Assembly: GCF_053078305.1 (NCBI RefSeq)
Contig: NZ_CP166879.1
Length of the DNA stretch: 64,000 nt
Direction: 5' to 3' (one strand)
The notes below the pieces were generated by a model. The model saw only the letters and a list, made by a program, of their open reading frames with translations. It searched no databases and was not told where the DNA came from. Shown piece after piece: positions 2,756-27,515 of the stretch. Position 1 is the stretch's first letter; each line of letters starts with the position of its first letter. The position numbers and the translations under genes were made by a program.

Positions 2756-3007
2756 TTAAGCAAGGTGACGTCTTGGCCTTGCCGATGCCTGACGCTCGAT
2801 CCAGCGATCAATTTCTTCCAGATTGTAAAAACATGGGCTGTTATCCCACGGCATGCCGTCATGAGCGACATGTTTATACTCTCTCCCTTCCATAAATGAT
2901 TTTTCCCTGGCTTTTTTCAGTGTTCCTTTTTTTATTCCTTTCAGCGCAATTAACTGCTCTTCAGATACCCATTTGCCGGGAGAGACAATCATGATTACTT
3001 CACTCAT
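2756..3007 (-). CDS. xis: Excisionase-like small DNA-binding protein
   Basis: 83-aa ORF directly upstream of int in the same orientation, the typical xis position. Sequence family not firmly recognised. Confidence 0.55.
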   Translation of the reverse strand: MSEVIMIVSPGKWVSEEQLIALKGIKKGTLKKAREKSFMEGREYKHVAHDGMPWDNSPCFYNLEEIDRWIERQASARPRRHLA

Positions 3008-3077
3008 CGCTTTTTATCTCTTACATCAGATGAGCGCCGGTTGCAGAATACCAGTCACAACCGGCGACGGTTGAACA

Positions 3078-5597
3078 TTAAAAATCAGCCTGATTCGGGA
3101 ACAGTTTTTGCCAGATAACTGAAACGTATTTTGCCTGGTAACGCGCATCGTGCAGGGCATTATGGCGTTCACCCTCAAATGTGATGACGTTGCGGGCATC
3201 GAAATCCATCACCAGTCCCAGGGCAACAATCGTTCTTACATCACGATCGTTGTAGTGACGCCACGGGCAGGGGATTTCTTGTCGTTTATATGAACGGCTT
3301 AAAATTACGTTGTCGAAGTTGGCTCCATTTCCCCAGACCTGAACAAAAAACTCACCGGAGTTTTCGTCTATAAATTCCCGTAATTGTAAAAGCGCATCAT
3401 CAAGCGGTATTCGATCAGCTAAAATGGCGGCACGGGCTTCGCCAGAGCGTTGAAGCCACCATTCGATGGTGCTTATGTCTACAGTGCCACCACATGTATC
3501 CATATCAATTATTTTGCTGAATTCTGGCCCCAGTTCTCCGGTTTGCGGATCGAAAAAGACTGCGCCTATTGAGGCTATTGGTGCGTCAGGATTTTTGCCC
3601 ATCGTTTCAAGGTCAATCATCAGGTGATCCCACATTCTGCTGGTGGATGTGCTTTCACGATGACCGTTCACCTTAATTAAGGGATTTGCTGTCTCGCCTG
3701 TTTCATTATTGCCATTGGCATGTTGATCGCCTTCGGTGCACTCCTTGTTCGGGTGTCCGGCACTTTCCATTTCCTCCAGATCTTTTTCCCGGGCTTCATC
3801 CTGGCTTTCTTCGTTGAATGTCTCCTGGTATGTTGCGTCGCCCATCACCGCGCCACAGTCAGGACAGTTGCCGCCACCGCTCTGACCGCAGGCGGTGCAG
3901 ACTTTTTCCTCTTCCTGTTGCGCTACTGGTTCGGATTGTTTCGTTTCTGGCTCGTCTTGTAACGCATTTTGGCTGTTTTGTTCTGCTTTCTGGTCGTTCT
4001 GTTCCGTTTCTTGCTGGTTCTGGTTCACAGAATCGCAGGTTTCAATCCCCTTAACCCATTTCGAATCATTCGGGTCGCTAATCCCTTCAACAAACTCACC
4101 ACGGGAAGCGGCAAGCAATTTGTCGGCATCTGGTCGACTGATGTCTGCTGCCTCCATAATTTTATTTACTTCTTCAGCAGTAACTTTTACCTGTGACTTG
4201 TCATCCAGCGGCTGCGGGTCCTGATGATGTTCAACTGTATCCGCTGCCATTGTTTCAGCCGTTGCCTGTTCATCTGCCATTGCGCCAGATGGCTGCGGTT
4301 TTTCTTCATCATCCTGTTTTCCTTCTTTTGTTACACGCTGAGGGATAGGGGCAGAGGAGCGACCGCAGGCAATATCCACGATTTCCGGATCAGGGTTGGC
4401 ATGATCGGTTTCGGTCAGTACTTTGTTCAGATATTCGGTAACACGGTGGGGAGTAGCCTCGATACCAATTGGTGCTTCTTTCACGGACGCAACTACTATC
4501 GCGCGGGAATAATCCAGGTGACCAGGCATGGCGATGAATTTGTCACGAAAAACAGAAAAGGGCGGCTTATTCTCTGAAACGATTTCTTCAATGCGTTTGG
4601 CGTGTGCCGGATGTGGATTGTAAATATCGATGTCCATTGAACGGGCCAGAACGCCAGCGGCAACGTCACGTTCCACTGACGCATCATCGTGGACAAAACC
4701 TTCACCGCGATCGGTAAGAATTCCTCCGCCAGCATTAGCGCCGGACGGGGTGCGATTGATTTCAGATACGCAATTTCCCTTTGCCCACTCTTTTGTCAAC
4801 AGCCCCTGATCAAGGTAGTCAGTCTTCATCCAGGTGGAAATGAACTTGTCGAATTCTGCCGGGCTGATACGGCGTGTTGTTGCGTGAGTGAATGCCTTTT
4901 CCACCGAATGCGCCAGTCTTCCAAGATGATGGTTTGTCAGCTTATCCAGCTCAGGATGCGAACGTACTGCAGTAAGCAGGCTCTGTATGTTTCCATCTTC
5001 CATATCCATTTCGATGCGGATCACGTCCTTGCGTTGTTCTGGTGTGGCGTGATGTTTGTATTTCTCGTCGAACTCCTGACCAAAGAAGTAGAGGTGCAGG
5101 AAGCGATGGGTAAGACTCAGGGTGGAGACGGGGATTTCACATTCAGGGCAGTCATCGTTGCTGTCCGGGGATTCGCTTTTATCTGCGTTCTCTGTCTGAG
5201 AGTCACTTTGTTCATCGCAGTCACGGCTGACACCTGTAACAGCTTCGCCGCTGGTATTGTCAGTGCTGGCAGGTTTGTCCTGAGCTGAAGGGGAAGGAGC
5301 TATAAATATCATTGTGATACCATCTTCCCCGCCTTTTTCGTAACGGTTGCAGAATTCAGTATCAAACACGCCTTCTGGAGGAAGGTCATTCACAACGGGT
5401 AAATGGACGCGAACAGGTTTTTTAAAGTCGTCCTCGTCATAATCATTATCATCCATTGCGGTAATGCAGCGGGAGATGGCAACAGATAATTTTTTTGCTG
5501 TAGTCCAGTAAAAACCACCTTTAATCCCAAGGCGTTTTCTGACCTTGTCATTTTTTGCTTCGCAATATAGTGCAAAAGTTTCTTTATCAGTGCTCAT
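3078..5597 (-). CDS. Large early protein with C-terminal DEDDh-type 3'-5' exonuclease domain
   Basis: 839 aa. C-terminus has MIDLETMG...WGNGANFDNVIL...HNALHDARYQA (DnaQ-like Exo I-III motifs). An acidic Q/E-rich linker and a CTACG..CPDCG zinc ribbon lie in the middle. Confidence 0.6.
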   Translation of the reverse strand: MSTDKETFALYCEAKNDKVRKRLGIKGGFYWTTAKKLSVAISRCITAMDDNDYDEDDFKKPVRVHLPVVNDLPPEGVFDTEFCNRYEKGGEDGITMIFIAPSPSAQDKPASTDNTSGEAVTGVSRDCDEQSDSQTENADKSESPDSNDDCPECEIPVSTLSLTHRFLHLYFFGQEFDEKYKHHATPEQRKDVIRIEMDMEDGNIQSLLTAVRSHPELDKLTNHHLGRLAHSVEKAFTHATTRRISPAEFDKFISTWMKTDYLDQGLLTKEWAKGNCVSEINRTPSGANAGGGILTDRGEGFVHDDASVERDVAAGVLARSMDIDIYNPHPAHAKRIEEIVSENKPPFSVFRDKFIAMPGHLDYSRAIVVASVKEAPIGIEATPHRVTEYLNKVLTETDHANPDPEIVDIACGRSSAPIPQRVTKEGKQDDEEKPQPSGAMADEQATAETMAADTVEHHQDPQPLDDKSQVKVTAEEVNKIMEAADISRPDADKLLAASRGEFVEGISDPNDSKWVKGIETCDSVNQNQQETEQNDQKAEQNSQNALQDEPETKQSEPVAQQEEEKVCTACGQSGGGNCPDCGAVMGDATYQETFNEESQDEAREKDLEEMESAGHPNKECTEGDQHANGNNETGETANPLIKVNGHRESTSTSRMWDHLMIDLETMGKNPDAPIASIGAVFFDPQTGELGPEFSKIIDMDTCGGTVDISTIEWWLQRSGEARAAILADRIPLDDALLQLREFIDENSGEFFVQVWGNGANFDNVILSRSYKRQEIPCPWRHYNDRDVRTIVALGLVMDFDARNVITFEGERHNALHDARYQAKYVSVIWQKLFPNQADF

Positions 5598-18658: not shown

Positions 18659-19717
18659 ATGCTTAATACTGTAAAAATATCCAGTTGTGAGTTAATCAAC
18701 GCCGACTGCCTGGCATTTATCCGGTCGTTACCCGAAAATTCTGTTGACCTGATAGTCACGGACCCGCCGTACTTTAAAGTGAAGCCTGAGGGCTGGGATA
18801 ACCAGTGGAAGGGCGACGATGATTACCTGAAGTGGCTGGACCAGTGTCTTGCGCAGTTCTGGCGGGTGCTGAAACCTGCCGGAAGTCTTTACCTGTTCTG
18901 TGGCCATCGCCTGGCATCTGATATCGAAATCATGATGCGTGAACGCTTCAGTGTGCTGAACCATATTATCTGGGCAAAGCCGTCCGGACGCTGGAACGGG
19001 TGCAACAAGGAAAGCCTGAGGGCGTATTTCCCCGCCACAGAGCGCATTCTGTTCGCGGAACATTATCAGGGGCCGTATCGTCCGAAAGATGCCGGGTATG
19101 AGGCGAAGGGCAGGGCACTGAAACAGCATGTGATGGCCCCGCTGATTGCTTACTTTCGTGATGCGCGTGCTGCCCTGGGGATAACGGCAAAACAGATTGT
19201 GGATGCCACAGGAAAGAAAAACATGGTGTCGCACTGGTTCAGTGCCAGTCAGTGGCAGCTACCGAACGAAAGCGATTATCTGAAATTACAGGCGCTGTTT
19301 GCCCGGGTGGCAGAAGAGAAGCATCAGCGCGGTGAACTGGAAAAGCCCCACCACCAGCTGCTGGAGACGTATACTTCACTGAACCGGCAGTATGCGGAAC
19401 TGCAGAGTGAATATAAGCATCTGCGGCGGTATTTTGGCGTGACGGCGCAGGTGCCGTACACCGATGTGTGGACGCATAAACCGGTGCAGTACTATCCCGG
19501 GAAACATCCGTGCGAAAAACCGGCAGAAATGCTGCAGCAGATAATCAGCGCGAGCAGTCGTCCGGGGGACCTGGTTGCAGATTTTTTCATGGGGTCGGGT
19601 TCGACAGTCAAAGCCGCGATGGCGCTGGGGCGTCGTGCAACTGGCGTTGAGCTGGAGACTGAACGTTTTGAGCAGACGGTCAGGGAAGTACAGGATTTAG
19701 CCAGTCAGAACGGATGA
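18659..19717 (+). CDS. Beta-class N6/N4 DNA methyltransferase
   Basis: DPPY motif near the N-terminus (LIVTDPPYF) and FMGSGST near the C-terminus. Same position as the methylase upstream of tRNAs in Stx-type phages. Confidence 0.8.
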   Translation: MLNTVKISSCELINADCLAFIRSLPENSVDLIVTDPPYFKVKPEGWDNQWKGDDDYLKWLDQCLAQFWRVLKPAGSLYLFCGHRLASDIEIMMRERFSVLNHIIWAKPSGRWNGCNKESLRAYFPATERILFAEHYQGPYRPKDAGYEAKGRALKQHVMAPLIAYFRDARAALGITAKQIVDATGKKNMVSHWFSASQWQLPNESDYLKLQALFARVAEEKHQRGELEKPHHQLLETYTSLNRQYAELQSEYKHLRRYFGVTAQVPYTDVWTHKPVQYYPGKHPCEKPAEMLQQIISASSRPGDLVADFFMGSGSTVKAAMALGRRATGVELETERFEQTVREVQDLASQNG

Positions 19718-19757: not shown

Positions 19758-19833
19758 GGCCCTTTAGCTCAGTGGTGAGAGCGAGCGACTCATAATCGCC
19801 AGGTCGCTGGTTCAAATCCAGCAAGGGCCACCA
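19758..19833 (+). tRNA. ileZ: tRNA with CAU anticodon (Ile2/Met, ileZ-like)
   Basis: Cloverleaf folded by hand: acceptor GGCCCTT/AAGGGCC, anticodon loop CTCATAA, T-loop TTCAAAT, encoded CCA. Confidence 0.85.
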
Positions 19834-19842
19834 TATCACATA

Positions 19843-19919
19843 CCGCCATTAGCTCATCGGGACAGAGCGTCAGCCTTCGAAGCTGGTTGCGCGGGGTTCG
19901 AGTCCTCGATGGCGGTCCA
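19843..19919 (+). tRNA. argN: tRNA-Arg (UCG)
   Basis: Acceptor CCGCCAT/ATGGCGG, anticodon loop CTTCGAA, T-loop TTCGAGT, encoded CCA. Confidence 0.8.
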
Positions 19920-19932
19920 TTATCGGTATTCA

Positions 19933-20009
19933 GCGTTGTTAGCTCAGCCGGACAGAGCAATTGCCTTCTAAGCAATCGGTCACTGGTTCGAATCCAGTAC
20001 AACGCGCCA
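19933..20009 (+). tRNA. argO: tRNA-Arg (UCU)
   Basis: Acceptor GCGTTGT/ACAACGC, anticodon loop CTTCTAA, T-loop TTCGAAT, encoded CCA. Confidence 0.85.
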
Positions 20010-20178
20010 TACTTATTTTTCTGGCTCGCTTTTGCGGGCCTTTTTTGTATCCGCGCCACGCCCGGCGCATATCAACCACAGAGCCTTTCGGGGGTGAGCT
20101 TACGGAGTGGTCAGTGTGACTTTCTCTGTGGGCAGATCGCTCCCGGGCGTTGGCTCACCCACCCAAAGGAACGTCACG

Positions 20179-20610
20179 ATGTTTGGTATTTTCAAAAAGA
20201 AAACCCGCAGAGCAGCAACGGAAATTAAAAAGTTTGAGAAACGCGATCTGGCACAGGCGGTTATTAATGCTGCCTACCTGGTAGCCTATGCAGATGGTGA
20301 ATGTGAGGCTTCAGAGAAAGCGAAGATCGAACAGGTATTACGTAACCAGCCTGCGTTGTCCGCGTTTACGTCAGAAATTAATGCCATCAGTGCCACGATC
20401 ACAGGTCAGCTTGACACCAACTTTAAAATTGGTCGTCGAGCGGCGTTGCGTGAAATTGAAGATGTGAAACACGATACGCGTGAAGCGGAAGATGTGCTGG
20501 ATGTGGCGGTGGCTATTGCTGAAGCAGATGGTGAAATTGAGCCGGAAGAGCGTAAGGTTCTGGAAGAGATTGCAGGTGTTCTTGGCCTGCGACTGGAGAA
20601 CCACCTGTGA
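20179..20610 (+). CDS. TerB-like (tellurite-resistance TerB fold) protein
   Basis: 143 aa with two ADGE..E.E acidic repeats (AYADGECEASEKAKI; AEADGEIEPEERKVL), typical of TerB-family metal-binding helices. Confidence 0.5.
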   Translation: MFGIFKKKTRRAATEIKKFEKRDLAQAVINAAYLVAYADGECEASEKAKIEQVLRNQPALSAFTSEINAISATITGQLDTNFKIGRRAALREIEDVKHDTREAEDVLDVAVAIAEADGEIEPEERKVLEEIAGVLGLRLENHL

Positions 20611-20771
20611 CGGTAAAACTGCGTCTGGCCGCTGTGGCACTCCTGCTGTTTCTGGTGGTGATGGTGGATTTCACCAGCAGGATCATGTCGGTGCTGGCGG
20701 ATGGAGTGCTGGTGGTCGGTATTGTGGTGGTGCTTTTTCCTTTGGTGAAAAAGGACATGCCAGGTAGTTAG
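20607..20771 (+). CDS. 54-aa two-TM membrane peptide coupled to the TerB-like gene
   Basis: GTG overlaps the TerB stop (GTGA). Sequence MTVKLRLAAVALLLFLVVMVDF...GVLVVGIVVVLFPLV. Confidence 0.4.
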   Translation: MTVKLRLAAVALLLFLVVMVDFTSRIMSVLADGVLVVGIVVVLFPLVKKDMPGS

Positions 20772-21072
20772 CCGGGTATCAGTCATGCCCCGAAAATTTT
20801 AAATGTCTCACAATTCAGACGGTTGACAGTTGTCTGTTTTGCGGGGAGTTTGTTAAAAGAAACTGGCATGGTGAATCCCCCTGAGCGGAGGGGCGACTGG
20901 TGCATTAGGTGTTATCTTTGATACCTAGGAAAGTGAACGCGCGGGTTTGGTTGCACCGGGCTGAACTCACCGGGAGGCACCCGGCATCATGCGCATGATG
21001 ATACAGATACGCGGCTTTAGCCCCTCTCCGGAGGGGCTTTTATATGAATTTTGTAAGATATGAGTAAACTAA

Positions 21073-21408: not shown

Positions 21409-21661
21409 TTAGCCTCCTTATTTATGCTGTGCTGGTGATGTTCTGAAAAGTATAAATGATAATTTTGAATGTAAACCATAGAGCAGAATTATTTTTCTGA
21501 TGTTGTTTATTTAAATACAGGTTTTTTATATCCCGTCTTGTAGTTTATCCATGCATACCTGCTTTATGATGAGGTTTTCATTTAAGGTATGGTTTTGTGT
21601 TTTTTTCTGTATTTCATGTCAGGTATTTTAAAGAATTGTTTTTAATATGGTGGAAAGAACC

Positions 21662-23629
21662 ATGGCATTTAAACACTACGATGTGGTCAGGGCGGCGTCG
21701 CCGTCAGACCTTGCGGAGCGACTGACTCAAAAACTGAAGGAGGGGTGGCAGCCATTTGGCAGTCCTGTCGCCATCACGCCTTATACCCTGATGCAGGCCA
21801 TTGCGGCGGAAGGTGATGTCACCACACCTGTGCTGGTGAAGCCGTCGGATGGAGAAGGCACAGTTATCAGCACCACCAGCGAACCGGAGTATTACTTTGT
21901 TGTTGTTCTGGCGGGGCAGTCAAACAGCATGGCATATGGTGAAGGCCTTCCGCTGCCGGAGACATATGACCGTCCGGACCCGCGTATTAAGCAGCTGGCG
22001 CGCCGCAGTACGGTGACACCGGGCGGTGCCGCCTGTAAGTATAACGACATTATTCCGGCGGACCATTGTCTGCATGATGTGCAGGACATGAGCCGTCTTA
22101 ACCATCCGAAAGCGAACCTGTCAAAGGGGCAGTACGGAACCGTGGGGCAGGGGCTGCATATCGGCAAAAAACTGCTGCCGTTTATACCGGCGAATGCGGG
22201 CATTCTGCTGGTTCCGTGCTGCCGTGGTGCTTCGGCATTCACAACGGGTGCAGACGGCACATACAGCGAATCAGCCGGTGCATCGGAAAATTCACTGCGC
22301 TGGGGTGTGGGTAAGCCGCTGTATCAGGATTTGGTGAGCCGGACTAAAGCCGCACTGGCGAAGAACCCGAAAAACCGTCTGCTTGCGGTGGTGTGGATGC
22401 AGGGAGAAGGTGATGCGGCAGTGGGGACGCATGCGCAGCATCCGGGGCTGTTTAGTGCGATGGTGAATCAGTTCAGAACGGAGCTTGCCGGTCTGGCATC
22501 ACAGAGCACAGGAGGCAGCGCATCAGCGGTACCGTGGATTTGCGGGGACACAACGTATTTCTGGAAGCAGCGTCATGCGGAAGGGTATGCATCAGTATAC
22601 GGAGGGTATAAGGGTAAGGAGTCGCAGAACATTTTCTTTGTACCGTTAATGACGGATGAGAATGGTGCGAATGTGCAGACCAATGACCCGGCAGAAGACC
22701 CGGACCTGGAAGCCGTCGGTTATTACGGTTCAAAGTGGCGTAATGACCAGAAGACCTGGACATCTGTGGACAGGGCAAGCCATTTCAGTTCATGGGCACG
22801 CCGTGGGATTATTTCCGACCGTCTGGCAACGGCGATTCTGGTGCATGCCGGGAGAACTGCTGAATTCATTACCGGAAAACAGCCTGATACGGTGAAGCCC
22901 ACCGGACCTTCCGGTGAAGGCCCGGAGAGAGAGCCGGAAGCCCCGGTCAGTAACCGAACCCTGATGAGTCTGCTGGCGTCCGGTGAAGACCTGGCATCAC
23001 AGGGCTGGCGCTATTATCACAAACCGGCGAGCGGAGACAATGTTGATAAAAACATCGCTGAGGCTGTGGTCAGTGATGAGGGTGCCACCGGTGGTAAGGC
23101 CCTGCAACTGAACAAACCGGAAAGCCACATCTGGTTTCTGGAGCATGATGCCGCCGGGCAGGGGGCAGAGTTGCTGAAGAAAGGCGGACGTGTGAGCGTA
23201 CGGTTTAAGGTGCCGGGCTCACTGGTGCCGAATCAGTTTGCCCTGGGTATTTACTGGCAGTTGTCGTCCCTGCCGGAGGGAGTGACGCTGGCAGAGGAAG
23301 GCAACGACATGCTGATGTCCTTCTTCCTGCAGACGGATGCGACGAACCTGAACGCGATGTACCACAAGAAGCAGAATGCGAAGCTGGATACGTTCGGGGT
23401 CTTTGATAACGGATGGCACACACTGGCTTTTGAGTTTGCCGGAAACAACAGCATTCAGGTGACGCCGGTACTGGATGAGAAACGGGGTACACCGTTCACA
23501 CTGGTGAAATCTCCGGCATCAGGGGCGGCGGACAAACTGCAACTGACAGGCATATCAAAGGCGGCGACATATACGTTGCTGATTGACAGTGTGAAGGTGG
23601 AAGTGAACAACGCGGACGCCGCGGCATGA
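21662..23629 (+). CDS. nanS-p: Prophage sialate O-acetylesterase NanS-p (DUF1737 + SGNH/SASA esterase + C-terminal lectin-like domain)
   Basis: MAFKHYDVVRAASPSDLAE... N-terminus and the VLAGQSNSMAYGEG esterase motif, as recalled for EHEC prophage NanS-p. Lies in the post-stx position. Confidence 0.75.
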   Translation: MAFKHYDVVRAASPSDLAERLTQKLKEGWQPFGSPVAITPYTLMQAIAAEGDVTTPVLVKPSDGEGTVISTTSEPEYYFVVVLAGQSNSMAYGEGLPLPETYDRPDPRIKQLARRSTVTPGGAACKYNDIIPADHCLHDVQDMSRLNHPKANLSKGQYGTVGQGLHIGKKLLPFIPANAGILLVPCCRGASAFTTGADGTYSESAGASENSLRWGVGKPLYQDLVSRTKAALAKNPKNRLLAVVWMQGEGDAAVGTHAQHPGLFSAMVNQFRTELAGLASQSTGGSASAVPWICGDTTYFWKQRHAEGYASVYGGYKGKESQNIFFVPLMTDENGANVQTNDPAEDPDLEAVGYYGSKWRNDQKTWTSVDRASHFSSWARRGIISDRLATAILVHAGRTAEFITGKQPDTVKPTGPSGEGPEREPEAPVSNRTLMSLLASGEDLASQGWRYYHKPASGDNVDKNIAEAVVSDEGATGGKALQLNKPESHIWFLEHDAAGQGAELLKKGGRVSVRFKVPGSLVPNQFALGIYWQLSSLPEGVTLAEEGNDMLMSFFLQTDATNLNAMYHKKQNAKLDTFGVFDNGWHTLAFEFAGNNSIQVTPVLDEKRGTPFTLVKSPASGAADKLQLTGISKAATYTLLIDSVKVEVNNADAAA

Positions 23630-23768: not shown

Positions 23769-23948
23769 ATGACATTTATTCATCAGGTGATGCTGTACTT
23801 CTGTACGGCGGTCTGTGTGCTGTATCTTCTTTCGGGTGGGTACAGGGCCGTGCGCGATTTCTGGCGCAGGCAGATTGATAAAAGGGCCGCAGAGAAAATC
23901 AGCGCCAGTCAGTCAGCCGGAAGCAAACCCGAAGAGCCGCTCATTTAG
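23769..23948 (+). CDS. 59-aa membrane protein
   Basis: MTFIHQVMLYFCTAVCVLYLLSGGY..., below the ORF-track cutoff. Read directly from the DNA. Confidence 0.4.
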   Translation: MTFIHQVMLYFCTAVCVLYLLSGGYRAVRDFWRRQIDKRAAEKISASQSAGSKPEEPLI

Positions 23949-23988: not shown

Positions 23989-24234
23989 ATGTCAGAAATC
24001 ACATCCCTGGTCACTGCAGAGGCAGTGAAGGAAGTCCTGCGCTCTGAAGAAGTCCTGAGCGCACTGAAACAGAAACTCCGCCAGAACCTTGAGTCGCGTC
24101 TTGATGCAGAAGTGGATGCCATTCTGGATGAACTGCTGGGCGCACCGGCTGTTCCGGAGCCGGAAGGCATTGCGGGTGACGGGAGTGCTTCAGATGGCGG
24201 TGAACCCACACCCGACAGCGACATGATGATGTAA
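23989..24234 (+). CDS. Hypothetical acidic protein
   Basis: 81 aa starting [13 protein letters not shown]. Lies upstream of the holin. Confidence 0.45.
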
Positions 24235-24310
24235 GCATGCGCAAGGGACCATCGGTGTGTGCCGGTGGTCTTTATATTGTTGTGAGCTTCCGGATTGCGG
24301 GAGACGGGGT

Positions 24311-24526
24311 ATGTACCAGATGGAAAAAATCACAACAGGTGTGTCATACACCACGTCAGCGGTGGGAACGGGCTACTGGTTCCTGCAGTTGCTGGACAGG
24401 GTTTCCCCGTCTCAGTGGGCGGCAATAGGCGTGCTGGGGAGTCTGCTGTTTGGTCTGCTGACATACCTGACGAACCTGTATTTTAAAATCAGAGAAGACC
24501 GGCGTAAGGCGGCCCGGGGAGAGTAA
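24311..24526 (+). CDS. S: Holin S (dual-start motif)
   Basis: [29 protein letters not shown]...[25 protein letters not shown] matches recalled Stx-phage holin. Met codons at 24311 and 24320. Confidence 0.8.
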
Positions 24527-24530
24527 AGCG

Positions 24531-25517
24531 ATGAATAACAAATATGAACTGGTTGTAAAAGGGATAAATCATTACCCGGATAAGATAACTGTTACGGTGG
24601 CACTGGAAATTGCCGGTCAGCCGTCGTTGTTGTCGCCATATGTGGCGATTAGTCTTGACCGTACTGAAGGTGCCACGCTGGAATTTTACGAAGCTGAGGC
24701 GAAAAAACAGGCGAAGCAGTTTTTCATGGATGCGGCTCTCGGATTACGCGAAGGGACTGCGCGATGTGGCTTTCAGAATATTTCTTCATGGACAATGCCG
24801 GAAAAAATCGCCACTTACCCGGGGCGTGAAAAGGTCAACGAACCGGTAAAAAATGCGCCTGATGATGTGCAGAGCGCGATGGTTAATGTGGAGCTTCCGG
24901 CACGTGTGACACCAGGAGTGAAAGTCGGGGAAGATTCTCGTCTTGTGCTGACCAAAAGAATAGGCAGCGTGGTCAGTGTTCATATTGATCATGAGGAAGT
25001 TCTGTCGGTTATGTACAGGGAAGACTACGATCCGAAAACAACATTCAGCGACTATGAAGCGAGAGCAAAGGAGTATGCCTTGTCGGTATTTGCTGCGGTA
25101 CGTGGCGAGGACTGTCGTAAAAACGGGCATGAAAGTGATTTTACTGTGCCTGTGTCGGACAAAAACCAGGAACGGGAGTGTAACCGGCCATCCTTTGTTG
25201 TATCCGGTGATGACGGGAAAATCACCATATCAGAAAATGGAAAAGTAACACCGCCATCGCACCAGCACAGTGAGACGCTCATTGAATTTGCCATTGATTA
25301 CCTGAAGAACAATAAAAAACAGGGGCTGATGAAGCGCATTGGTCGCTGCATGGGATATCTGCAGCTGGCGGCAGAGATTGAAGCACTTGCCAGTGGTGCA
25401 GACAGGGATGCTGCGGTGCGGGAGGCTCTTCTTTGTGATTTCAATACGCCACCCTTTAAGAAAGAGCCTGATGGCTGGATCCAGCCGGGGCTGACTTATC
25501 TTAAAGTGCGTATTTAG
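24531..25517 (+). CDS. Unknown 328-aa protein inserted between holin and endolysin
   Basis: Tight spacing (4 nt after the holin stop). No recognisable motif. Confidence 0.6.
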   Translation: MNNKYELVVKGINHYPDKITVTVALEIAGQPSLLSPYVAISLDRTEGATLEFYEAEAKKQAKQFFMDAALGLREGTARCGFQNISSWTMPEKIATYPGREKVNEPVKNAPDDVQSAMVNVELPARVTPGVKVGEDSRLVLTKRIGSVVSVHIDHEEVLSVMYREDYDPKTTFSDYEARAKEYALSVFAAVRGEDCRKNGHESDFTVPVSDKNQERECNRPSFVVSGDDGKITISENGKVTPPSHQHSETLIEFAIDYLKNNKKQGLMKRIGRCMGYLQLAAEIEALASGADRDAAVREALLCDFNTPPFKKEPDGWIQPGLTYLKVRI

Positions 25518-25553
25518 TGGGCCAGGGACAGCGGCTGAATATTTAATATATAC

Positions 25554-26087
25554 ATGAACGCAAAAATCAAATACGGCCTGTCAGCTGCTGTTCTGGCGCT
25601 GATTGCCGCAGGTGCGCCTGCGCCTGAAATCCTCGACCAGTTTCTTGACGAAAAAGAAGGTAACCACAGCACGGCATACCGTGATGGTGCGGGTATCTGG
25701 ACCATCTGCCGTGGTGCCACCCGGGTGGATGGTAAGCCTGTCGTCCCTGGCATGAAGCTGTCGAAGGAAAAATGCGACCAGGTTAACGCCATTGAACGTG
25801 ATAAGGCGCTGGCATGGGTGGCGAAAAACATCAAAGTGCCACTGACTGAACCCCAGAAAGCGGGGATCGCGTCATTCTGTCCTTACAACATTGGCCCAGG
25901 TAAGTGTTTCCCGTCGACGTTTTATAAACGAATTAATGCAGGCGATCGCAGGGGAGCGTGTGAGGCGATTCGCTGGTGGATTAAGGACGGTGGCAGAGAC
26001 TGCCGTATTCGCTCAAATAACTGTTACGGTCAGGTATCCCGGAGAGACCAGGAGAGCGCGCTGGCGTGCTGGGAAATCGACAGATAA
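25554..26087 (+). CDS. R: SAR-type endolysin (GH24 lysozyme)
   Basis: N-terminal Gly/Ala-rich SAR segment GLSAAVLALIAAGAPA, then the catalytic region EGNHSTAYRDGAGIWTICRG. Confidence 0.85.
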   Translation: MNAKIKYGLSAAVLALIAAGAPAPEILDQFLDEKEGNHSTAYRDGAGIWTICRGATRVDGKPVVPGMKLSKEKCDQVNAIERDKALAWVAKNIKVPLTEPQKAGIASFCPYNIGPGKCFPSTFYKRINAGDRRGACEAIRWWIKDGGRDCRIRSNNCYGQVSRRDQESALACWEIDR

Positions 26088-26243
26088 GCAGAATATTTTG
26101 CTGAAAAATGAGGTTTGCTTACATGGACGGATAACACGAAATCCTGCGAACTGGCAAAATGTAAGTGAATAAAAGTAAAAACCCCGTTTGTTGGCAGCAA
26201 GCGGGGTTTTGTGTTTCTGACCTTGGATAAGGCAAGGGAGAAC

Positions 26244-26426
26244 ATGGAAAAGTATAAACGAATTCTGTTGAGGTTGACTATGAAAAACGGCCTTGAACTG
26301 AAAGCGCCAGTAACTGATGACATCAGCAGAGCACTGGCTTTTGCTATTAAGTGGGTGGCGGTCGGTATCGCTGTGTCTCCGATGCTGTATGGGCTGGCAA
26401 AACTGGTCATTGCGTTGAAATCGTGA
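26244..26426 (+). CDS. 60-aa membrane protein
   Basis: Starts after terminator 26179-26212 with RBS AGGGAG. C-terminal TM segment WVAVGIAVSPMLYGLAKLVIAL. Confidence 0.45.
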   Translation: MEKYKRILLRLTMKNGLELKAPVTDDISRALAFAIKWVAVGIAVSPMLYGLAKLVIALKS

Positions 26427-26440
26427 AGGGAGGATTAAAC

Positions 26441-26572
26441 ATGTCAGACAAACTCATAATGCTGGCGAAGATCCTCTGTGTAATCGTCGGCATTTCATTT
26501 TCACTAATGCTGGTTGCTATTTGCTTTTCCACTGCCTGGCGCGTCTTAACTCTGTCAGGGCTGGTGGGGTGA
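26441..26572 (+). CDS. 43-aa membrane protein
   Basis: RBS GAAGGGAGG. Sequence MSDKLIMLAKILCVIVGISFSLMLVAICFSTAW... Confidence 0.45.
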   Translation: MSDKLIMLAKILCVIVGISFSLMLVAICFSTAWRVLTLSGLVG

Positions 26573-26579
26573 CAGAAAC

Positions 26580-27515
26580 ATGAAATGTGTACTGTATTCC
26601 GGTGACTGTCTTGATGTTATGCCTTCATTACTACCGGGAAGTGTTGACCTGGTTTTATGTGACCCGCCGTATGGAACCATTAAAGGGCTTACACTCCGTA
26701 CATGGGATAAGAGTACGACAGCATGGGACGATGCCTTAAATCCTGAAGATATTTTCACACAGTGCGAACGACTGCTGAGGGTGGGCGGTGTGCTGGTCAT
26801 GTTCAGCCAGGAGCCGCATACAAGCACGATGATTACTCTGGCGGATAAAAACCTGCCGTTTTTATATCGTATGGTGTGGAAGAAGGAGCATTTCCCCAAC
26901 CCGCTTTCAGTAAAAAAAGCACCTGTATCTTTATTCGAGGATATCGTTGTTTTCCGGAAAAAATATGACAGTGAGAAAAACCACCCGCTGAGGGAGTACG
27001 CCCGAAATATCCTTTCTTTCATTGGCCACAGGACAGACAAGGAAGTTAACAAAACACTGGGGCACTGTCGGGCAGAGCATTTTTTTCGCGTGAACACAGT
27101 CCAGTTTTCCCTCTGCTCACAGGATACGTACAACGAGTTAATTAAACGCTTTGGTATCGACCGTATGCCGGGTTTCATGACATATGAAGAAATGTGCAAA
27201 GTGAATTCCGGTTACGGCACTGTGGTTTTTAATCTCCCTCAGGGGAAAAAATACCGCGCAAATATTCTGGAGTACGCGCGGGAGCGGGAGCGATGGCATC
27301 CGACCCAGAAGCCAGTTGCATTACTGGAAGAGCTGATTCAGACGTACAGCAACCCTGGCGACAGGGTACTGGATTTTACTATGGGGAGTGGTTCAACAGG
27401 TGTTGCATGTATCCGGACGGGGAGACGGTTTACCGGAATAGAAAAGGATGACCGGTATTTCGCTGTTGCAAAAAAACGTCTGGAAAAAGAAAACAGTGAA
27501 ATGGTGGTGATATGA
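26580..27515 (+). CDS. Second beta-class N6/N4 DNA methyltransferase
   Basis: LVLCDPPYG near the N-terminus, then HPTQKP and FTMGSGSTG near the C-terminus. Overlaps the Rz start by 4 nt. Confidence 0.8.

Follow-up and report, generated by a model that had tools for sequence, protein, structure and literature searches.

The type member of the family to which the gene considered here belongs is ydfR (b1555, P76160), which lies in the cryptic prophage Qin of E. coli K-12. In Qin, ydfR starts 4 nt past the stop codon of the class II holin gene essQ, upstream of the lysozyme gene rrrQ, and encodes a protein of 103 amino acids (aa) that comprises a DUF1327 domain and a short helix. In a two-hybrid screen, a fragment covering YdfR residues 1–72 bound both Rng and RNase E, whilst full-length YdfR bound Rne 1–597, and Rne 1–598 co-eluted with Strep-YdfR (PMC13232886). 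The same study reported that DNase-resistant nucleic acid co-purified with YdfR, and that overproduction of YdfR altered few transcripts (PMC13232886). Our subject is a 328-codon open reading frame (ORF) with an ATG start at positions 24531..25517 (+ strand) of a 64,000-nt stretch of contig NZ_CP166879.1 (assembly GCF_053078305.1; hereafter, "the window"), where it separates the holin gene S from the endolysin gene R of a lambdoid prophage. We conclude that it is a rare mosaic member of the known DUF1327/YdfR prophage family, and that it occupies the place in which members of the family are usually found.

Family membership is carried by two profile matches. Residues 1–74 of the 328-aa protein correspond to Pfam DUF1327 (PF07041; 113.5 bits against a cutoff of 25, E = 5.5e-33, profile positions 1–74 of 93), and the whole protein (residues 1–328) matches PHROG 1085 along the entire profile (E = 4.8e-115, positions 1–296 of 296), although its middle differs from that of most PHROG 1085 members. 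Relatives of the protein carry the NCBI names "YdfR family protein" or "DUF1327 domain-containing protein". Together with the intact copies and the dN/dS values (ratios of nonsynonymous to synonymous divergence) described below, these matches place the reality of the ORF far beyond chance. An earlier note on this DNA, made from the letters and their translations, had found no recognizable motif in the protein, which is at odds with the presence of a curated Pfam domain. It had also named a confident match to a well-known family with an ordinary function as the finding that would speak against its reading; the match is indeed confident, and the family known and common, but no function has been established for PHROG 1085. 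Elsewhere in the protein the databases had little to offer: there was no NCBIfam match, Pfam returned nothing for the middle or C-terminal parts at E ≤ 1, and a comparison of N-domain and C-module profiles with the sequences in the PDB gave only noise.

The gene is tightly embedded in its cassette. Immediately upstream is an S21-type class II holin (pinholin) gene, S, of 71 aa (24311..24526, +) with a Met1/Met4 dual start, which matches Pfam Phage_holin_2_1 (E = 9e-33) as well as PHROG holin families. Its stop codon (24524–24526) is separated from the ATG of the 328-aa gene by just 4 nt (AGCG), and a Shine–Dalgarno sequence, GGGGAGAG (24516..24523, +), is located within the 3′ end of the holin gene, 7 nt ahead of that ATG. 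On the other side, a 36-nt spacer (25518..25553, +; …GGGCCAGGGACAGCGGCTGAATATTTAATATATaCATG) with no obvious Shine–Dalgarno sequence leads to R (25554..26087, +), which encodes a 177-aa endolysin (PF00959 lysozyme, E = 4.6e-25; PHROG 7 endolysin) of the signal-anchor-release (SAR) type, judging by its hydrophobic, Gly/Ala-rich N-terminus (GLSAAVLALIAAGA). A consensus scan found no promoter-like or terminator-like site on the + strand between 24273 and 26178. The placement given in the earlier note, and its statement that no promoter or terminator is evident, are thus borne out. So is its view that the gene is co-expressed with the lysis genes, given that they share a strand, that the gene begins 4 nt past the S stop behind a Shine–Dalgarno sequence inside S, and that no signals intervene; co-transcription with S and R is a reasonable inference. 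The product is predicted to be soluble and acidic (pI 5.7), and the note was likewise correct in seeing neither a transmembrane segment nor a signal peptide, as the highest Kyte–Doolittle mean over 19 residues is 1.05 and the N-terminus has no hydrophobic stretch. YdfR also has no transmembrane segment.

Two terminator-like hairpins bracket this three-gene block exactly. One, of 13 pairs with a weak T tail, lies just 5′ of S (24244..24273, +), and the other, a strong hairpin of 15 pairs, lies just 3′ of R (26178..26210, +). Within the block itself, Rfam recognized no known RNA family. The hairpins may serve in the processing or the stability of the late transcript, a point of relevance should the 328-aa product act on RNase E.

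Since S and R had been regarded in the earlier note as normally adjacent, the position of the gene had been taken as anomalous. To gauge this, we surveyed 80 IMG/VR contigs whose holin is 97–100% identical to that of the window, and R was located in 71 of them. Adjacency is indeed found in lambda and in many phages encoding Shiga toxin (Stx) 2a, but S and R were adjacent in only 11 of the 71 S21-type loci, and so the premise fails for this type of cassette in general. In 47 loci, the holin stop is followed at +5 by the start of a DUF1327 gene: in 36 this gene lacks the C-terminal module described below (and is mostly 104–176 aa), in 10 it joins the N-terminal domain to that module, and in one (L043, 100% identical) it has the form seen in the window. 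A further 12 loci carry a C-module gene without an N-domain, and one holds something else. The same +5 start occurs in K-12 Qin (ydfR), BP-4795, mEp460, Evi, PhiR42_1, and Stx2-converting phage 86. In the S21-type pinholin/SAR-endolysin cassettes of E. coli lambdoid prophages, therefore, the slot commonly holds a DUF1327/YdfR gene.

Both edges of the slot are conserved. The left boundary is the GGGGAGAGTAAnnnnATG junction, behind which related loci have either a DUF1327 gene or, if that gene is missing, R itself, which then starts at +5. At the right boundary, two conserved sequences, …GGGCCAGGGACAGCGGCTGAATATTTAATATATCCATG and …CCGATAAATCCTGATAAATATCCATG, precede R in occupied slots, and the 36-nt spacer sequence of the window is also found before R in most loci in which a C-module lies directly upstream. 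In occupied slots R has no recognizable Shine–Dalgarno sequence (25518–25553 in the window, and the equivalent region of L004–L083), whereas in cassettes with adjacent S and R, the R gene uses the one inside S. Occupancy of the slot may consequently change the translation of R.

These features bear on the possibility that the protein is a lysis regulator, that is, a cytoplasmic factor that adjusts the pinholin/SAR-endolysin clock, for instance through binding to the membrane-tethered endolysin or to the charged tail of S on the cytoplasmic side, or an insert that shifts lysis timing merely by separating R from translational coupling to S. In E. coli the gene always lies 4 nt past the holin stop with R following it, and the +5 start that R takes when the gene is missing means that the insert may alter R translation. 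In addition, the Keio ydfR deletion was envelope-leaky in a screen with chlorophenol red-β-D-galactopyranoside, and neither essQ nor rrrQ/ydfQ appears in the searched supplementary files of that screen (PMC3879167). The leakiness may, however, be explained by the terminator-less kan cassette driving expression of the SAR endolysin gene rrrQ just downstream. For an antiholin or endolysin regulator of the kind of lambda S107, P1 LydB, T4 RI, or Mu releasin, one would expect a membrane or periplasmic location that gives access to the holin or endolysin, and obligatory co-occurrence with the cognate one. In contrast, the 328-aa protein has neither a transmembrane segment nor a signal peptide, and any DUF1327 gene is missing from 11 of the 71 loci with a near-identical holin and from about three-quarters of the deposited phages with this holin type (among 50,697 phage records, 434 have the holin type and 100 the DUF1327 N-domain). 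Lysis does not, therefore, need the gene. As the Salmonella homologues are, moreover, found upstream of a holin from another family, from which further genes separate them, we consider a role in lysis regulation unlikely, and the suggestion of a lysis-timing factor in the earlier note is correspondingly weakened.

The Salmonella branch of the family is informative in its own right. A profile of the N-domain retrieved 163 proteins, all from Escherichia, Shigella, or Salmonella, and a profile built from the most distant hits retrieved 202 proteins, every named one of which is from Salmonella enterica. The S. enterica prophage proteins (such as P0128, P0130, and P0153; 260–320 aa) are homologous end to end to those of the E. 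coli branch and share the same N–variable–C plan, with ~29–40% identity; P0128, for example, aligns over its full length with orf5 of Stx2-converting phage 86 (28.7% identity, E = 1e-18). Their DUF1327 match falls below the Pfam threshold, but homology of the Salmonella N-domain to DUF1327 was recovered by hhalign (probability 92%, E = 5e-7). In each of three contexts from Salmonella prophages, the gene is on the late strand between Q (which is next to hicAB) and the holin gene, with other genes between. The holin there is of the Phage_holin_2_3 family, and its gene overlaps the lysozyme gene. The conserved feature of the family is thus a promoter-proximal position in the late operon, rather than the gap between S and R, and we conclude that the family is a component of the late operon rather than of the lysis machinery.

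What sets the window gene apart from its relatives is its internal architecture. Comparison with relatives and a second AlphaFold (AF2) model show the protein to be a mosaic of three modules. Module N (aa 1–74; 24531..24752, +) is the DUF1327 domain, modelled as three beta strands (residues 5–14, 18–27, and 37–43) followed by a helix (residues 50–73), with predicted local distance difference test (pLDDT) scores of 72–95. It carries the hallmark DRxEGAxLEFYEA, and in our alignment (A5), which spans the E. coli and Salmonella branches, G47, L50, E51, and Y53 are invariant. Module C (aa 215–328 plus the stop codon; 25173..25517, +) is modelled as a three-stranded sheet followed by four helices (pLDDT 80–96) and is characterized by the motifs GRxMGxLQxAAEIE and (D/N)xPPFK...WxxPGxxYL (alignment A2). 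It also occurs in the same slot in genes of ~185–213 aa that lack the N-domain.

Between the two lies a variable middle (aa 75–214; 24753..25172, +) that comprises a low-confidence linker and a rare module, which we call MID. Its core (aa ~135–195, nt 24933–25115) reads RIGSxVSVxxDxEEVLSVMYxEDYDPxTTFSDYEARAKEYALSVFAA and replaces the coiled-coil segment of most relatives, to which it is unrelated in sequence; for this reason nucleotide matches to most relatives cover only 59% of the gene. A strand–strand–strand–helix arrangement is predicted for the middle, at a pLDDT below 50, and residues 119–188 are matched by phrog_11851. The full-length middle is common to a single cluster (P0001), whilst MID occurs in a handful of others (P0110, P0122, P0127, P0129, P0131, P0133, and P0142), in which it sometimes stands alone and is sometimes placed at the C-terminal end of the protein. 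When residues 75–328 were used in an exhaustive HMMER scan of 1.84 billion representative proteins, just 26 clusters were recovered; one matched protein, P0141 (1079 aa, 7 matched stretches), was disregarded as a repetitive junk translation. A peptide pattern taken from the C-module was found at three loci among the genome contigs but, being one pattern, says little on the distribution of the module.

The three strand–strand–strand–helix units in the AF2 model, and the resemblance of TLEFYEAEAKK to TFSDYEARAKE, had suggested an internal triplication of DUF1327. The sequences do not support it, given that hhalign returned a probability of 8% for N against MID and 0.3% for N against C, and that BLASTP found only a 17-residue match.

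Measured against individual relatives, the mosaic nature of the protein is readily apparent. The N-terminal domain of YdfR is 43% identical to that of the window protein over residues 1–74 (E = 1e-17), but YdfR lacks both the middle module and the 114-aa C-module, and the ydfR stop codon overlaps the rrrQ start, in contrast to the 36-nt spacer of the window. The 114-aa proteins encoded by BP-4795 (ORF47), by an unannotated ORF of H-19B, and by their equivalents in Stx1a and Stx2c phages have the same +5 start and 86.5% identity in the N-domain; being short forms, they lack both MID and module C. Two long relatives in the same slot are orf5 of Stx2-converting phage 86 (BAF34037.1, 268 aa) and the common 296-aa E. 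coli "YdfR family protein" (P0022; PHROG 1085), with 81–87% identity in the N-domain and 82–91% in the C-module. Where the window has MID, these two have a coiled-coil-like middle (…DDIESRIEKLE…).

Although the family is widespread, the exact N–MID–C form is not. Roughly one in four complete E. coli genomes (1,337 of 5,426) matches the gene at least once, nearly all of them over its first 225 nt only, and the 100 phage records with the N-domain are mostly Stx1a and Stx2c phages; the C-module occurs in just five records. In comparison, the N–MID–C form was found in seven of the 5,426 genomes (93.5–96.8% identity), in a single protein cluster of 89 members, and in one IMG/VR contig, where it is identical. 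In all six of the complete genomes that we inspected (L001 and L093–L097, i.e., NZ_CP129252, NZ_CP046539, NZ_CP169309, NZ_CM143724, NZ_CP054363, and NZ_CP049845), the NCBI Prokaryotic Genome Annotation Pipeline (PGAP) records the orthologue as a 225-nt partial pseudogene, "incomplete, missing C-terminus".

If that annotation is taken at face value, the gene would be a pseudogene or a decaying remnant of which nothing beyond nt 1–225 is recognized. However, the 328-codon ORF is intact in all seven of the other copies despite nucleotide divergence of up to 6.5%, dN/dS against the window copy is 0.22–0.28 (0.25 for the C-module alone), and the architecture is kept down to 29% identity in Salmonella. 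The dN/dS values imply that the gene is functional and under purifying selection, and we regard the pseudogene explanation as refuted. The systematic mis-annotation of long alleles in RefSeq accordingly conceals ~760 nt of coding sequence under selection, and with it a C-terminal module that has no entry in any domain database.

The substitution pattern also reveals exchange within the gene. Synonymous divergence (dS) amounts to 0.27 for the C-module and to 0.016 for the middle, a difference implying that alleles of the modules have recombined. We also noted an extreme locus, L002 (E. coli A25, NZ_CP028750), in which S and R are 1,722 nt apart and the region 3001–4349 holds a truncated YdfR gene along with a C-module in an ORF of its own and another DUF1327 gene, which is divergent (48% identity). 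The presence of several family pieces in this one slot suggests that it accumulates and reshuffles modules.

Alternatively, the gene may be moron-type cargo, unrelated to lysis or to RNase E, that serves host modulation, superinfection exclusion, or anti-defence and evolves by module exchange; it would share its late-region hot spot with stx, nanS-p, ant, bor, and orphan methylases. The GC content of the gene is 46–50%, as compared to 54% for S, R, and Rz, the gene is polymorphic for presence and absence, at least six module combinations occur in the one slot, and there is the intragenic recombination just described. Furthermore, the neighbouring R–Rz slot of the window carries cargo of its own (a methyltransferase and small membrane ORFs), and the family is confined to prophages of Escherichia, Shigella, and Salmonella. 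The description "late-expressed cargo" in the earlier note agrees with the lower GC, the polymorphism, and the module shuffling. Against such a role, the strict junction with S and purifying selection without overall signs of diversification are atypical of arms-race proteins, no PADLOC defence model matched, and neither the 163 N-domain relatives nor the 202 Salmonella-branch relatives include a fusion to another Pfam or characterized domain. A role as cargo of this kind strikes us as possible but doubtful, and it overlaps with action on RNase E, since a moron could act through that enzyme. We also considered the protein as a component of a defence system, and rejected the idea when no family in PADLOC-DB matched at E ≤ 0.1.

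The explanation that we favour, tentatively and at less than even confidence, is that the window protein is a soluble accessory protein of the late phase that uses module N to dock on RNase E, in the catalytic half of the enzyme, with the MID and C modules providing self-association or contact with a second partner. The basis for the docking reading is that the interacting fragment, YdfR 1–72, corresponds to the DUF1327 domain. RNase E binding has been demonstrated for YdfR rather than for the window protein (PMC13232886), and we infer both its transfer to the latter and any effect on RNA decay. As envisaged, the 328-aa protein would be translated, like S and R, from the late transcript that depends on Q, while remaining outside the core lysis machinery. 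Through its DUF1327 domain it would attach to the N-terminal, catalytic half of the host's RNase E, and possibly to RNA as well, so that the most likely mode of action would be that of a docking or adaptor protein; the middle and C modules may serve oligomerization or recruit a second partner; and RNA processing or decay would be adjusted in the late phase, in which the long late transcript needs to last. Several observations favour this proposal. In E. coli, where it directly follows S, and in Salmonella, where it lies between Q and the holin gene, the gene occupies a promoter-proximal position within the late operon; the protein is soluble and acidic, with no transmembrane segment; the N–variable–C plan is kept over the full length in both genera; and the dN/dS values speak for a functional gene.

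T7 gp0.7 and T4 Srd are phage modulators of RNase E or the degradosome. The mode that we propose for the window protein, in which a small, soluble phage protein binds host RNase E, is the same as theirs and as that of phiKZ Dip. However, we found no sequence or fold similarity between the window protein and any of the three, which are early proteins of lytic phages, whereas the window gene is a late gene of a temperate phage. Dip provides a precedent for a phage protein that targets the RNase E degradosome (PMC4980113). It binds RNA-binding segments of the C-terminal scaffold of RNase E, as opposed to the N-terminal half bound by YdfR.

A wider generalization, which we put forward as speculation and think improbable as it stands, is that the S–R slot of enteric lambdoid prophages (among them Stx1a and Stx2c phages and Qin) houses modular late proteins whose DUF1327 domain docks on the catalytic half of RNase E, and whose swappable middle and C-terminal modules divert or curb RNA decay as the lytic cycle ends. 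Were this true, they would be the first RNase E-directed factors described for temperate lambdoid phages, located inside the lysis cassette, and they could affect late-gene output, including that of toxin. More generally, should the RNase E lead hold, the family would tie the late phase of temperate phages to RNA decay in the host.

For the window itself, the outcome is largely deflationary, in that the seemingly wedged position of the gene is the norm for this type of cassette and only its middle segment is unusual. Interest nevertheless remains in a common family that sits in one of the best-studied cassettes of phage biology, yet has no assigned function and is unstudied in phages, whose long forms are mis-annotated, and for which there is a testable RNase E lead. 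The ORF is not discussed in the accessible portions of two comparative papers on Stx phages (PMC8136144, PMC10462455).

Several neighbouring features of the window are also worth recording. The cargo of the R–Rz slot includes an N6/N4 DNA methyltransferase gene (26580–27515, +; PF01555, E = 1.3e-32; PADLOC type II/orphan methyltransferase), the stop codon of which overlaps the Rz start. Ahead of it, at 26211–26426 and 26351–26572, are an ORF of 71 aa whose C-terminus is hydrophobic (phrog_1115) and a small hydrophobic ORF that overlaps it. The GC content here is 47%, compared to 54% for S, R, and Rz. The R–Rz insert matches phages (PhiR12/PhiR5) over no more than its first ~496 nt, and for the methyltransferase part there was no megablast match (which needs roughly ≥85% identity) in the 50,697 phage records. 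A second DNA methyltransferase ORF is found further upstream, at 18659–19717.

Three tRNA genes (Met-CAT, Arg-TCG, and Arg-TCT) follow at 19758–20009, and after them, where Stx phages carry stx, are a TerB-like ORF and a small DUF3927-like membrane ORF (20107–20771). With this arrangement, the element is an stx-negative lambdoid prophage that has the late-region architecture of an Stx phage. Between the TerB-like ORF and a gene for a NanS-p-like esterase (21647–23629; DUF1737 + SASA + DUF6645) lies a full-length copy of the Rfam small RNA STnc100 (20837–21049, +; 140.9 bits against a gathering score of 47, E = 7e-32), which ends at a terminator-like hairpin (21019–21038). Finally, two small ORFs, DUF1378 (23769–23948) and DUF826 (23989–24234), are located upstream of S, as they are in Stx phages.
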